Shown: in pieces, positions 51,382-57,737 of the stretch
Layout: every line of letters starts with the position of its first letter
Numbering within the stretch: the first letter of the stretch is position 1
Assembly (NCBI GenBank): GCA_963765495.1
Contig: CAVXWP010000008.1
Span: forward strand, 288,001-352,000
Length of the DNA: 64,000 nt
Direction of reading: 5' to 3'
Origin: Blastocatellia bacterium
Lineage (GTDB): Bacteria > Acidobacteriota > Blastocatellia > UBA7656
Translations under genes and position numbers: made by a program
The notes under the pieces: generated by a model
What the model was told of the DNA's origin: nothing
Seen by the model: only the letters and a program-made list of their open reading frames with translations
Database searches by the model: none

Positions 51382-52881
51382 TCAATGTTTGATCTTTTGC
51401 CAATAGCTCTCGAATTCGAAATCAGGGCTGTTGGACTGAGTGTGGCATTGAACGCAACCGGATGGAGTGGTCATCTGGCCGTAGCCTTTGCCGGGATTCT
51501 CAACGTGCTGTTTGCCGGGTCCGTGACAGGCTTCGCACTGAACATTGGCAAACTGTGGAGTGGTGACCAGGCTCTGAAATCCACCCTGATTGAAACCCAC
51601 GACATGGCATTTCACGCACTCGGTATCGAACTGCTGATTCTTCTTCTCAAGCGTGGCCATTGCGTGCGCGTGGTTTGTATTCTGCCATATCTGGTACTGC
51701 TGTGTGTGACAGCTGGCACACGCATCCGCGCCAACATAAAGAGAGTTGGTATTGAGTGGTCCCTCGACTCTTACCGGCGTTGGGGTATGAGCCTGCGCGG
51801 CCTGATTTTGCTGCTCGGTAAATTCATCGTGCGCGGCAGTTACGATTCGGACAGCATCCGGGTCATCGGGTATCACCGAATCCATAGCGTTAAAGCGATT
51901 CACCTGATTTTCTATAGCGCCATCGCTTTTGACATAGTAGAGCATCTCGCCCAGATGTTTTGTTTGACTAAAGGCAGTGGTAACGGTTGCCCGGTTGTAA
52001 TGTTCGGGCTCGTCAAGCGAGTTGATCTGTTTGCCTGCAATCACAGTATCGATCTCTGAGTTATTGATCGCAAGTTTCTGAGCCATATCCCTGGGCATGT
52101 AAGCCAGCGCGATAATGACATCAACCTTCTTCTTTAGTTCGGGGAGCACTCGACTGGCTGCTTCAAACGGGTCGGTAATCCGATAGCTTGCATTTGTGGC
52201 GCTATCTATATTGATCTCCGTAAAACCGACGATGCCAACTTTGACCTTCTGTCCGGGAGCGCCTCGCTTGAGAGTGATTTCGCGGATCACATAAGGTTGA
52301 GGTGCGCGGTGAGAGTCATCGAGCGGCTCAACATTGGCAGAAATGAGTTTCGAAATGAACGGAAACTCTTCGATCCTGTTGTCATATCCGTCCTTCTTCA
52401 GCAACTCCGTAAGATAGGGAAGATCGGAATAGCTGATATTGGCAGCGTCGACATGGAATTCGCCGTAACCCTTGACTACCCATCTATTTTTTGTCATAAC
52501 GTCAGAGGGTAACTGGCCTCCAGCAAAACGCTCGTCGGTGAACAGATTGCCTGCATCAACGGAGATAGTGGGGACTTCTCCATTTGAGACGTACTTAAAT
52601 GCGTTGATAAAGCTGGCACGCCGTGCCAGACCACCCATAGGGTGAGCCGGTCAGCCACAGGTTTCGAGGCTGCCGTGAAGGTCAGCGCCGTAAAAGACGG
52701 CAAAGGCGTAACCATCATCTACGCCCAACCGGTCTTTTATTTTCGGATCATTCGGATCAAAGCTCAGGCTTTCAACTTTATCGCTGATCTCATCGGCTCC
52801 TGACCTGGAGCAGCCATGATTTATCGCAGCCAGCGTGGAAATGAACGCCAGTATGATTAATAGTGAGATTTTTCGCCGCAA
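51382..52881 (-). CDS. Predicted selenoprotein: exported UshA/5'-nucleotidase-like domain with a CxU motif, fused to a tetraheme cytochrome c (TGA at 52651-52653 read as Sec)
   Basis: GGAGG RBS and TTG at 52881; the frame runs continuously through ACC TGT GGC TGA CCG GCT CAC CCT ATG GGT GGT CTG (TCG-U-PAHPMGGLARR); four CxxCH motifs (CASCH, CVKCH, CEACH, CVQCH); hairpins immediately 3' of the TGA. Confidence 0.82.
52612..52650 (-). promoter_or_regulatory. Candidate bacterial SECIS element
   Basis: Directly after UGA: GGC-U-CACCC-UAU-GGGUG-GUC with a bulged U, then CUGGCAC-GGC-GUGCCAG with a G-first loop about 28 nt from the UGA. Confidence 0.55.
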
Positions 52882-52986
52882 TGGAAACCTCCGACAATGG
52901 AAAATCGCCTTCGATTCGAAAGGTTGTATGATAGTATAACAACCTGAAGCAGAATCCGAAGGCTGACAGTTCAAAATCATATCATT

Positions 52987-54558: not shown

Positions 54559-54621
54559 CGCTGTGTCAAGAATGTTCATCATAAAGTGGTGGTTTTATCA
54601 TCCTTCTCAACAGGTGCAATT

Positions 54622-56184
54622 ATGGCAACGTCGGAAACAAATGTAAGAAATGATCCTGAATCAAATACGGCTGCTGAAGTAGTAGTCAAGCCAAGTCCCA
54701 GAAAAGAAGTATCCATAGTCGATAAAATATTAGCTCTGCTCAGTTCAGTGCGTTTTGGGGTGACTATGCTCGTCATCCTTTTGATTTGTTGTATGATCGG
54801 AATGCTTATTCAGCAGGTAAACGTAGAGGGATTTCAGGAGTACTTTCAGCGGCTTACACCCGCCCAAAGGTTGATCTACTCAAAGCTGGGATTCTTTGAT
54901 ATTTATCGGTCATGGTATTTTAGCCTTTTGCTTGCCGTAACAGGGTTGAATATTATCCTCGCATCTATAGATCGTTTTCCCACAGCCTGGCTCTATATCT
55001 CAAAGCCAAAGGTAAAGGCATCGCCAAATTTTATCCGCGCTCAGATGTTTAATAGCGAGATAAAAGAGAACATTCCTCCTCAGAAAGTGGCTGAAAGTGT
55101 CCGCGCCGGATGGCGCAGGCTCGGATTTCGAGGTAAGGCAACCGAGGATGGAAAAAGAATCACAGTATTTGCTCAGAAAAACACCTGGAATCGCCTCGGC
55201 GCATATGCAGTCCATGTTGCGCTGCTCACCATCTTCACGGGCGGCTTTTTGACAAACAGATATGGCGTAGGGGGGATGATGGAGATTCGCCCCGGGATGA
55301 CGACGAATGCCTTTAATACCATTGAAGAATCACTCGATGGGCCGAAAGTGGATAGAGCATTCACTCCGTTTCAAGTCGAGTGCGTAGATTTGCAGCAGAA
55401 ACTGATCAGACCCGAGGGCGGGCTCGATGCCCAAAACACGATTGATTGGATCAGCACCGTCAAGATAAAGGATGGCTCGAAAGAGGTCCCGGCAGTTGTG
55501 AAGTTGAATTATCCATTCGATTATCGCGGATACAGGCTTTTTCAATCACAGTTTACGCCGGTCGGGAATGCGCGGAAGATTGTTTTGAGTTTTGAACCCG
55601 CATCAGGCGGGAGCCCACTGCCCGAGGTTACGATCCCGCGAAACGGGTCGGAAGATGTTCCGGGCATTGGGAAAGTGAGTTATGTAGACTTCTTCCCGGA
55701 TTTCAAGATTACGGAATCGGGACCGACGACACAATCCGGGGAATACAACAGCCCTGCCGCGAGGTTGGAAATTACATCACTTGATGGTAAAAAACAGACG
55801 GCCTTTGCCTTCAGCCCAAAGATTGCGGACGAATATTTATCGGCGGCTGAAAAGGCCGACAAGACCGGGGGCGAGAACCCTCTGCTGGTAAATGGATACA
55901 AAGTTATATTAAAAGACTTTGAGAAGGTGGCGCTCGGCCATACGCTTGCAGTTCAGTATGACCCTGGCCGAATACCTGTCTATACGGGATTCACGCTTCT
56001 CATCCTTGCCTTATGTGGGGTTTTCTTTTTCTCTCATCAGAGAGCGTGGGCTGTTATTGAGCCCGATCCTGATGGGGGATCGACAGTGTACTTCGGGGGT
56101 AATACGAATCGAAACAGGCCTGCCTTCGAAGCTCGCTTCAATTCACTGGTTCAATCTGTTTCAGAAGGAAGGAGCCAAAGATGA
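54622..56184 (+). CDS. resB: System II cytochrome c biogenesis protein ResB/CcsB
   Basis: LSSVRFG, IGMLIQQ, DIYRSWYF, VHVALL, LNYPFDYRGYRLFQS and YDPG. Confidence 0.9.
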   Translation: MATSETNVRNDPESNTAAEVVVKPSPRKEVSIVDKILALLSSVRFGVTMLVILLICCMIGMLIQQVNVEGFQEYFQRLTPAQRLIYSKLGFFDIYRSWYFSLLLAVTGLNIILASIDRFPTAWLYISKPKVKASPNFIRAQMFNSEIKENIPPQKVAESVRAGWRRLGFRGKATEDGKRITVFAQKNTWNRLGAYAVHVALLTIFTGGFLTNRYGVGGMMEIRPGMTTNAFNTIEESLDGPKVDRAFTPFQVECVDLQQKLIRPEGGLDAQNTIDWISTVKIKDGSKEVPAVVKLNYPFDYRGYRLFQSQFTPVGNARKIVLSFEPASGGSPLPEVTIPRNGSEDVPGIGKVSYVDFFPDFKITESGPTTQSGEYNSPAARLEITSLDGKKQTAFAFSPKIADEYLSAAEKADKTGGENPLLVNGYKVILKDFEKVALGHTLAVQYDPGRIPVYTGFTLLILALCGVFFFSHQRAWAVIEPDPDGGSTVYFGGNTNRNRPAFEARFNSLVQSVSEGRSQR

Positions 56185-57737
56185 GTAGAGCAATAGACCG
56201 AAATGATGCAATGATGCCTGAACTGGAACTGACCTTGCCCGAGAAGGTGATTGGCATGTGGCCGGTTGTCATGCCTATATTGCTAGCGGTAGTGCTGATC
56301 CTGGCAAGGATTTACATAGGGCCAAAGGGCTTTTTATATGAGGGCGCGCTCACGATGCTTGCGCTCGTATCCTATATCAGCGCCGGAGTCCTGCTCTTAA
56401 CAAACCTCTTTGTAAAAGAGAATGTGCTTTACAGGCTGGGATTGCTGACCGTATCGATGGGGTATTGTTTTAACCTGTCCGGGTGGATGATGCGATGGAT
56501 AGAGGCCGGGGATGCCGAAGGGTGGAAAGAAGGAATCAACGGTGTCTGGCGCTATTTCCCGCTCGATAATCTTTATCCGCTAACGCTCGGATTTTGCGCG
56601 GGCGCAGCCTTGACGACGCTTGTGATTATTAGAAAACCTCGATATCAGTTTCTCGGGGCGCTCTCGATGCCGATAGTGACCGTGATTCTTACGCTTGCTA
56701 CTTTTTTGGGCAATGACATAAGAACGCTTCCTCCAATTCTAAACAGCTATTGGCGACCAATCCATGTGTCGATTGCGACAATCGCATATGGTGTTTGTCT
56801 GGTGAGTTTTGGTCTTGCCTTCGCTTATCTTCTAAAAGACGGGGTCAGAACAGAGGCGATTGCCATTGCGGTGGGGTTGTTTGGGCTGCTTGTGTATTCA
56901 ACGGTTGGGAGATTTGGCATCCCCTTTCATGGTGAGTATGGCGTTTCACTCTTTATGGATAAGATGAGTTTGCCTGTACGGGCAACTCTGCCTGGAGTCG
57001 GTCCCTTAATGGCCGTTGCTCTGATTCTGATATTGAGTGCTGTAATACTGTTTGCGATTGATTTCTGGAAGGGTGATGAGAAAGCGAAAAAATGGGGCTG
57101 GAATCTCTTCAGATCGGCAGTGGTCGTTCAGGCTATAGTGCTGGTCGCGCTGTTTTACCAGGTGAGCAATCTGAGCAATCCAAGTTCTCGTGTTCCGCAA
57201 AGCGCGTTGCCGCAATTCGGCGGATGGCTTTCAAAGCAGATGCAGACGAACGTGCCGCCTGATCGTCAGGCGGAATTGGCACAGAGTTGGATAAACCAGA
57301 ATTCAACATCTCTTATCGTCAACAAGGAGTCTAACCCCGTCGAATTTGGAGCACTCATCGGTTTATTTGTTGCGTTGCTGATTGTGTCATTGTTTGCCTG
57401 GAAGCGGAAAGAGGTGGTCAACTCCCTCCCTCCATTACAGAAGATTGACGGGTTGCTCTACAGAACTGTGGGGGTTGCTTTCCCCTTATTATCTCTTCTT
57501 TTGATTACGGGGGCCGTGTGGGCAAATGAGTCCTGGGGACGTTACTGGGGATGGGATTCAAAAGAGGTAGGGGCTCTCGTAGCATGGATGGCCTATGCAG
57601 GCTTCCTTCACACGAGGATTGCTCACGGCTGGCGAGGCAGACGCAGTGCCTACTTTGCCCTTCTCGGTTTTGCACTGGTGATCTTTACCTGGCTTGGGGT
57701 GAGCTACCTATTGCCGGGATTACATTCCTATGCCTAG
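56181..57737 (+). CDS. ccsA: System II cytochrome c synthase CcsA/ResC
   Basis: LPPILNSYWRPIHV and the WWD domain GAVWANESWGRYWGWDSKE; terminal GLHSYA. Confidence 0.93.
   Translation: MSRAIDRNDAMMPELELTLPEKVIGMWPVVMPILLAVVLILARIYIGPKGFLYEGALTMLALVSYISAGVLLLTNLFVKENVLYRLGLLTVSMGYCFNLSGWMMRWIEAGDAEGWKEGINGVWRYFPLDNLYPLTLGFCAGAALTTLVIIRKPRYQFLGALSMPIVTVILTLATFLGNDIRTLPPILNSYWRPIHVSIATIAYGVCLVSFGLAFAYLLKDGVRTEAIAIAVGLFGLLVYSTVGRFGIPFHGEYGVSLFMDKMSLPVRATLPGVGPLMAVALILILSAVILFAIDFWKGDEKAKKWGWNLFRSAVVVQAIVLVALFYQVSNLSNPSSRVPQSALPQFGGWLSKQMQTNVPPDRQAELAQSWINQNSTSLIVNKESNPVEFGALIGLFVALLIVSLFAWKRKEVVNSLPPLQKIDGLLYRTVGVAFPLLSLLLITGAVWANESWGRYWGWDSKEVGALVAWMAYAGFLHTRIAHGWRGRRSAYFALLGFALVIFTWLGVSYLLPGLHSYA

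Follow-up and report, generated by a model that had tools for sequence, protein, structure and literature searches.

Does the in-frame TGA at positions 52653-52651 of a 64,000-nucleotide (nt) stretch of DNA from a Blastocatellia bacterium end a short gene, or does it encode selenocysteine (Sec) within a longer one? The stretch, called the window here, comprises positions 288,001 to 352,000 of contig CAVXWP010000008.1 (assembly GCA_963765495.1); coordinates without another label are those of the window, and the gene lies on its minus strand. Gene finding with table 11 gave two open reading frames (ORFs) of 109 and 418 amino acids (aa), the latter starting from the ATG at 52638. The original prediction, made from the sequence alone, held that the two ORFs are one frame split only by a TGA and that this TGA encodes Sec. 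Our reading of the frame agreed on the first point: from TTG 52881-52879 to TGA 51384-51382, the sole interruption is TGA 52653-52651. We consider it highly probable, from the comparisons given below, that 52881..51382 (minus strand) is a single gene for a 499-residue exported selenoprotein of the UshA-like (seleno)protein family, probably anchored to lipid. The elements of this gene are the following.

52888..52892, minus strand: Shine-Dalgarno sequence GGAGG, 6 nt ahead of the TTG start, read from the sequence.
52879..52881, minus strand: TTG start codon of the full-length gene, from the open frame and the homolog alignment.
52810..52881, minus strand: predicted signal peptide (residues 1-23) closing with HG-Cys24, the Cys being a possible lipoprotein Cys, from a basic and then hydrophobic N-terminus.
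52651..52659, minus strand: Cys75-Gly76-Sec77 (TGT GGC TGA), with the putative Sec codon at 52651-52653, from the frame, the homologs and the relatives.
51382..51384, minus strand: the true stop codon, likewise TGA, with no SECIS-type (selenocysteine insertion sequence) hairpin after it.

Translation through the internal TGA yields a 499-residue protein containing ...YGADLHGSLETCG-U-PAHPMGGLARRAS..., the residues around Sec being YGADLHGSLETCG-U-PAHPMGGLARR. As had been proposed, it is the upstream part that carries the ribosome-binding site and the start; inspection of the sequence ahead of the internal ATG 52638 found no Shine-Dalgarno-like run. In an alignment with database homologs (12 full-length matches and one that is N-terminally partial), the start-codon column holds an initial Met in 6 of the 13 and an initial Leu in 2 more. 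Cys24 is kept in 13/13 N-terminally complete aligned sequences, the window protein counted, and we infer that the signal peptide is cleaved and the protein perhaps lipidated at this residue. The TGA itself had been singled out for a check in sequence data. An assembly contig from a public soil run spans 52571-52756 with 0 differences, the TGA included, although this run may be the window's own source sample. Contigs of that run cover the gene only in parts, and a second run gave none that matched it.

The identity of the residue at the TGA column was examined in the best 120 database matches. At this column, where the original prediction had taken a residue such as Trp or Arg in homologs as a sign against Sec, Cys is present in all 13 uninterrupted homologs, each reading N-C-G-C-P. 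The majority of the matches (106/120) are shorter, with 418-435 aa covering 84% of the query, and all five short-form sequences that were fetched start MGGLARR, at the Met five codons past the TGA; some short forms carry the NCBI label 'multiheme c-type cytochrome'. Together these records look like a systematic truncation at the Sec codon. They could also be taken at face value, with the TGA as a genuine stop between a short upstream ORF and a separate 418-aa cytochrome gene, or with the locus as a pseudogene. This is how gene callers annotate it, and the length and common start of the short matches fit. However, the 418-aa form would possess neither a signal peptide, despite periplasmic heme attachment, nor a Shine-Dalgarno sequence; the 76 codons upstream show conservation in this frame and can be aligned to Cys-containing proteins of full length; and the TGA falls within an invariant C-G-x motif, followed by a hairpin specific to Sec forms (see below). 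We regard a genuine stop as very improbable.

The best NCBIfam match of the read-through protein was NF041198, 'UshA-like (seleno)protein' (model UshA_like_PCGU, an equivalog of 519 positions), with an E-value of 7e-81. Positions 23-270 of the model match the N-terminal domain and positions 352-519 match the cytochrome domain (residues 328-491); positions 271-351 are unaligned. Using this profile, we searched a class sample of 41 genomes, 24 of them from the same family, and located the gene in 40 of the 41 and in all 24 of the same family. Examination of 53 loci (L015, L016, L022-L072), representing the window's own genome and 40 relatives, gave C-G-TGA in 42/53, C-G-Cys in 6/53 and no motif in 5/53; four of these last five are other N-terminal matches and one is a C-terminus only. 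The recurrence of TGA within C-G-U in 42 of 53 loci is far above chance. Separate genes for the two halves in relatives had been another outcome held to speak against the prediction; what the relatives retain is the TGA and the single frame.

Two groups of paralogs were seen among these loci. Group A, with ETCGUPSHPMGGLARR, includes the window gene and occurs in 22/24 same-family genomes; group B, with EPCGUKPPRMGGLARR, includes a second copy in the window's own genome and occurs in 18 relatives. This second Sec paralog (C9:836222-837553, minus strand; L015:886-2544, minus strand) reads …GELGTCGUKGPRVGGLARR…, has four CxxCH motifs and shares with the window gene the hairpin that follows the TGA. 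It adjoins a gene for an AMP-binding enzyme, and a gene like IS605 OrfB/TnpB lies near it.

The Sec and Cys forms extend well beyond the class. A cross-phylum scan of one genome per species, in which loci were found via a peptide pattern from the heme domain, returned 80 loci, at least 3 of which repeat genomes already counted in the class sample. TGA was found in 22/80 and Cys in 49/80; 9/80 were unresolved by the motif used. The loci span Acidobacteriota, Planctomycetota (including Scalindua), Verrucomicrobiota, Myxococcota, Desulfobacterota, Nitrospinota, Armatimonadota and others.

Decoding of UGA as Sec in bacteria depends on a hairpin downstream of the codon. We anchored a nucleotide alignment of 41 Sec-form sequences at the TGA and found two candidates.

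52631..52645, minus strand: hairpin 1, UCACCC-UAU-GGGUGG, the first after the UGA and possibly a lower or auxiliary part of the SECIS.
52613..52629, minus strand: hairpin 2, the predicted SECIS core, CUGGCAC-GGC-GUGCCAG, in which a stem of 7 bp closes a 3-nt loop whose first base is G, at a spacing of 28 nt from the UGA.

Hairpin 1 (columns 9-23) has 85.8% of its cells paired across the 41 sequences, two pairs with compensatory change and an energy of -7.0 kcal/mol. Hairpin 2 (columns 25-41, CUGGCAC-GGC-GUGUCAG) is paired in 41/41, with a compensatory change from A-U to G-C in 7 sequences and from C-G to U-A in 2; when the alignment was slid as a control, pairing fell to 27-44%. The window's own hairpin 2, folded in isolation, gave -9.8 kcal/mol (z -3.07). 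According to the bacterial SECIS (bSECIS) model described in PMC13188914, the loop has 3-9 nt, the stem 4-16 bp, a G stands in one of the first two loop positions, the distance from the UGA is 16-37 nt and the minimum free energy (MFE) is no higher than -7.5. Hairpin 2 satisfies all these published constraints, with its 7-bp stem, GGC loop, 28-nt spacing and -9.8 kcal/mol.

Because the stem of hairpin 2 also encodes a conserved peptide, L-A-R-R-x-S, we limited a matched control to sequences with x-A-R-R peptides. Among the Sec forms, 47/49 have 7/7 pairs and the remaining 2 have six; among the Cys forms, 0/15 have seven pairs (range 1-6). In Sec forms of three other lineages the hairpin persists; the stems differ, and the loop is GGC or GGA. 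We also observed that several deltaproteobacterial Sec forms (L124, L148, L153, L156 and L159; Desulfobacterota-type) have an earlier hairpin, UUGGGC-GGUCU-GCCCAA, with a GGU loop, and are without the acidobacterial one. Apparently, the UshA-like family uses two SECIS solutions. The mRNA of the window gene would contain both a Sec-UGA and a stop-UGA, with the hairpin apparently the sole feature that discriminates between them.

The original prediction had pointed to selA, selB, selC and selD as genes to seek, and all were found in the window's own genome: profile matches to SelA (467.5 bits), SelB (374 bits) and SelD (385.7 bits), and one tRNA-SeC with anticodon tca identified by ARAGORN. SelA is present in 41/41 genomes of the class sample, Cys-only genomes among them. 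This shows that the Sec trait is general across the class; because SelA occurs in all 41, its co-occurrence cannot separate Sec from Cys forms. Thus, the claim that the TGA encodes Sec is supported by the Cys column, the retention of TGA, the Sec-specific hairpin and the machinery. In the proposed mechanism, SelB and Sec-tRNA(Sec) would decode UGA-77 as selenocysteine, directed by the intragenic hairpin at 52613-52629.

What kind of protein does the restored frame encode? An AlphaFold2 model built from a 41-row alignment, with no hemes placed, had a predicted local distance difference test (pLDDT) score of 82.6 and a predicted template modelling (pTM) score of 0.78. Two domains can be recognized.

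51787..52764, minus strand: UshA/5'-nucleotidase-like fold with a degenerate metal site, residues ~40-365, from the model, Foldseek and ligand motifs.
51385..51744, minus strand: c554-like tetraheme cytochrome c domain, residues ~380-499, from PF13435, structure matches and conservation.

Residues 40-365 are modelled with confidence (pLDDT mostly >90). Foldseek matches of the model include Escherichia coli UshA (1oie, E 6e-18), YfkN, CD73 and SoxB, the values for UshA, YfkN and CD73 ranging from 6e-18 to 1e-15. Of the ligand motifs expected in this fold (DxH, GD, GNHE, H and GHxH), only D67-x-H69 is retained, and four of the five are replaced. Specifically, a profile alignment to YfkN showed that VDNGD has become VDAGN, so that GD is G111-N112; GNHE is S150-Y151-S152-D153, the very reading SYSD that had been given for this site; LAH is LAY261; and GHQH is G283-K-Q-I286. 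A Pfam search found no Metallophos domain and no 5'-nucleotidase C-terminal domain even at E<=1, and the position of the latter is occupied by the cytochrome domain.

We also aligned 70 family sequences, which had been selected on C75, U/C77 and GG, so that the invariance of those columns is by construction; the selection permitted G, A or S at column 76, and conservation at G76 and the remaining N-domain columns was not imposed in this way. The only N-domain columns conserved in at least 90% of the sequences are G70, C75, G76, U/C77, G83, G84 and G111, and column 76 is Gly in 70/70. D67-x-H69 is present in the window protein and its close orthologs; family-wide, D67 occurs in 42/70 and H69 in 8/70, and an acidic residue stands at 153 in 70/70. 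Because the ligand motifs are lost and are not conserved across the family, the two-metal centre is gone, in agreement with the earlier suggestion of a dead phosphoesterase scaffold. Judged from this alignment, the conserved feature of the N-domain is the Cys/Sec loop, G70...C75-G76-U/C77...G83-G84, which comes after D-x-H, the first of the metal-ligand motifs, and in the window protein reads ETCGUPAHPMGG.

Two readings in which this domain would still work through a metal need to be considered. The protein could be a functioning 5'-nucleotidase or phosphodiesterase with a mere cytochrome tail, as suggested by its likeness in fold to UshA, YfkN and CD73 and by the label 2',3'-cyclic-nucleotide phosphodiesterase that the Joint Genome Institute (JGI) gives to many homologs. 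We find this scarcely credible, given that the replaced ligand motifs are conserved nowhere in the family and that the cytochrome stands in place of the substrate-binding C-domain of UshA. Alternatively, the C-G-U loop, together with D67, H69 and D153, could bind a replacement metal, and the chemistry would be centred on this metal rather than on a chalcogen. The retention of D67-x-H69 near the window protein, the universal acidic residue at 153 and the position of the loop beside the former metal-ligand motif agree with such a site; the family-wide counts for D67 and H69 leave no conserved ligand sphere besides Cys/Sec and D/E153, and we judge it unlikely.

The C-terminal domain gave a simpler picture. 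The sole Pfam match of the protein is Cytochrome_C554 (PF13435), with 62.1 bits against a gathering score of 20.8. Four CxxCH motifs are present at residues 388-392, 422-426, 449-453 and 476-480 (51706-51720, 51604-51618, 51523-51537 and 51442-51456, respectively), and the c554-like tetraheme part that had been claimed for the protein is borne out by both results. Profile matches of the domain include Nitrosomonas cytochrome c554 (1bvb, E 6e-16) and a multiheme protein (6i5b, E 3e-24). Beyond the CxxCH motifs, H404 and H459 are conserved in 70/70 sequences and the C-terminal H499 in 60/70, giving three distal His for four hemes, which is the c554 pattern. V447, C449, E450, C452, H453 and G454 belong to the peptide pattern by which loci were found, and hence their conservation in 70/70 is largely by construction. 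We infer that the protein is exported, because c-type hemes demand it. About 2 kb from the selenoprotein gene, the window contains genes for ResB (54586-56184, plus strand; 215.9 bits) and a CcsA-type assembly protein (56181-57737, plus strand), which constitute System II for cytochrome c assembly.

Taking the two domains together, a mechanism can be proposed. The N-domain keeps the 5'-nucleotidase/calcineurin-like fold with its two-metal centre lost, and the c554-like domain would bear four c-type hemes, attached by the nearby System II (ResB/CcsA). The former phosphatase pocket would house Cys75 and Sec77 as a redox-active pair (selenenylsulfide/selenolate), whose substrate would be a small periplasmic thiol, a sulfane-sulfur compound or some other chalcogen; the heme chain would move electrons between this pair and redox partners in the periplasm. 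A precedent for such a shuttle is the yeast sulfhydryl oxidase Erv2, in which a Cys-Gly-Cys shuttle disulfide on a flexible loop passes electrons to a bound cofactor. We propose this Cys75/Sec77 relay wired to the heme chain tentatively, giving it somewhat less than an even chance. A sulfur or selenium substrate would be the natural guess from a SoxB-like fold and CxU chemistry.

The count of distal His raises a different possibility, namely that the heme without a conserved distal His has Cys75 or Sec77 as its sixth (distal) ligand. No free pair would then exist, and the heme, with His/Cys or His/Sec ligation, would be catalytic in the manner of TsdA and SoxAX, enzymes of sulfur oxidation whose catalytic c-type hemes are ligated by His/Cys. 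In favor of this, the family has four CxxCH motifs and only three further conserved His, C75 and U/C77 are the sole invariant nucleophiles of the N-domain (these being columns used for sequence selection), and SoxB of the Sox pathway is among the fold matches. However, c554 has one five-coordinate heme, so that three distal His need no extra ligand, and the joint conservation of C75 and U77 suits a pair better than a lone ligand. We think ligation of this kind quite unlikely. As its fullest form we would offer, as a long shot by analogy, a new type of heme enzyme in which the Cys/Sec loop enters the tetraheme domain as an axial ligand or covalent partner of the heme without a conserved distal His and, at the cell surface, oxidizes thiosulfate, sulfane sulfur or a selenium compound in the manner of TsdA/SoxAX. 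If this were true, the Sec forms would provide the first example in nature of a heme ligated by selenocysteine.

Several observations weigh against the selenoprotein assignment or the relay, and we collect them here. With Cys standing in for Sec, the window protein scored 272.3 bits against NF041198, 2.7 under the cut-off of 275. A syntenic ortholog (L022) scored 289.3 bits, and 3/41 genomes pass when the pieces are summed (281.4, 276 and 275.3 bits); the 418-aa ORF alone gave 239 bits, and the upstream piece contributes 33 bits. By orthology we place the window protein inside the NF041198 family, though strictly it lies below the cut-off. With regard to the RNA, the whole stretch after the UGA folds no better than shuffled sequences (z -0.51 for 72 nt and z -1.14 for 43 nt), and the isolated hairpins alone stand out. 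A crude comparison of MFE in the 60 nt after the codon, between 22 Sec and 49 Cys forms across phyla, gave p 0.79, although such a fixed window is a poor test because the hairpin of the deltaproteobacterial Sec forms is another one and lies earlier. An Rfam search of 52300-52900 found nothing close to any gathering score. Within the modelled N-domain, confidence is lowest at the CGU loop (residues 71-80, mean pLDDT 77); the model of the heme domain is poor, with pLDDT 42-76, as expected without hemes. Lastly, the gene neighbourhood of the loci scanned contains no functional partner, and the redox mechanism is drawn solely from motif logic.

The neighbourhood itself is well conserved. The gene is flanked by maf, which is divergent, and by dciA, which has the same direction and is followed by genes for an ATP-binding cassette (ABC) ATPase and lolA. 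The dciA gene (PF05258; 50846-51295, minus strand) directly follows the UshA-like gene both here and in same-family orthologs, and the order maf / UshA-like / dciA / ABC ATPase recurs in the same-family loci scanned. In four genomes from other families of the class (L073-L076), dciA also adjoins Cys forms; the adjacency of the UshA-like gene and dciA is older than the switch between Sec and Cys. We considered this neighbourhood as an operon hint and rejected it, since it is a conserved synteny of housekeeping genes that looks inherited. In one same-order genome only, a gene with a rhodanese domain (L078:327-737, plus strand) immediately precedes the Cys form (L078:777-2315, plus strand) in the same orientation. 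This rhodanese neighbour is the lone hint of sulfur chemistry.

The family is not new to the literature. 'UshA-like, COG0737, CxU' is tabulated as a selenoprotein family in PMC2398784, in PMC9312934 (2022) and, together with NF041198, in PMC13188914 (2026), and the first of these (Zhang & Gladyshev 2008) counts 76 Sec and 92 Cys sequences of UshA-like CxU in Global Ocean Sampling (GOS) data. That UshA-like selenoproteins with CxU are known had been stated in the original prediction; beyond this, the whole architecture, cytochrome domain included, is already curated as NF041198. A full-text literature search, with supplements and any per-family lists in them outside its reach, found no functional study of the UshA-like family and no paper on an acidobacterial member. 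Our finding is a correct rediscovery: a further, borderline-scoring member of a catalogued selenoprotein family, which is mis-annotated here and in most public records. To the catalogued family we add the Sec-specific SECIS hairpin, supported by a matched control, the occurrence of Sec paralogs in pairs within genomes of the acidobacterial family, the family-wide loss of phosphatase ligands and the count of three distal His per four hemes.

The mis-annotation has consequences, as truncation at the Sec codon leaves a so-called "multiheme cytochrome" with no signal peptide and without the one conserved motif that looks catalytic. Furthermore, since nearly every sampled genome of the acidobacterial family has two Sec genes, the selenium use of soil Acidobacteria would be greater than annotation suggests. 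Members of the UshA-like family are found widely across phyla and combine a metal-less phosphatase fold with a Cys/Sec pair and a heme wire of the c554 type. Purification of a member could uncover a new periplasmic redox reaction, for which the natural Sec/Cys pairs and the Sec-specific hairpin would be clean tools of testing.

Comparison with better-known systems helps to place the protein. With UshA, Bacillus subtilis YfkN and CD73 it has in common the fold and the motif order DxHG, GGxAR, VDxGx, SANV; unlike them, it is without four of the five metal-ligand motifs and the nucleotide-binding C-domain, and phosphoesterase activity is not expected for this reason. The thiosulfohydrolase SoxB (Thermus, PDB 2wdc/2wdf/4uwq) is of the same fold class (template modelling score TMq 0.47-0.48) and is a periplasmic protein of sulfur chemistry, but it has no hemes and no CxC/CxU motif, and it retains a two-manganese site; the SoxB model TIGR04486 gave only 24.9 bits for the window protein against a cut-off of 550. 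Nitrosomonas c554 likewise has four hemes, but it is a free-standing carrier, whereas here the hemes are fused to a domain that bears Cys/Sec and looks catalytic. Erv2, TsdA and SoxAX are mechanistic analogies only, with no relationship in sequence or fold. The closest comparison is with the NF041198 family, which has the same two-domain architecture, the C-G-U/C motif and the interchange of Sec and Cys. Within it, the window protein differs in having T ahead of the Cys, where P stands in 56/70 family sequences, and the Blastocatellia branch is set apart by two Sec-containing paralogs per genome.

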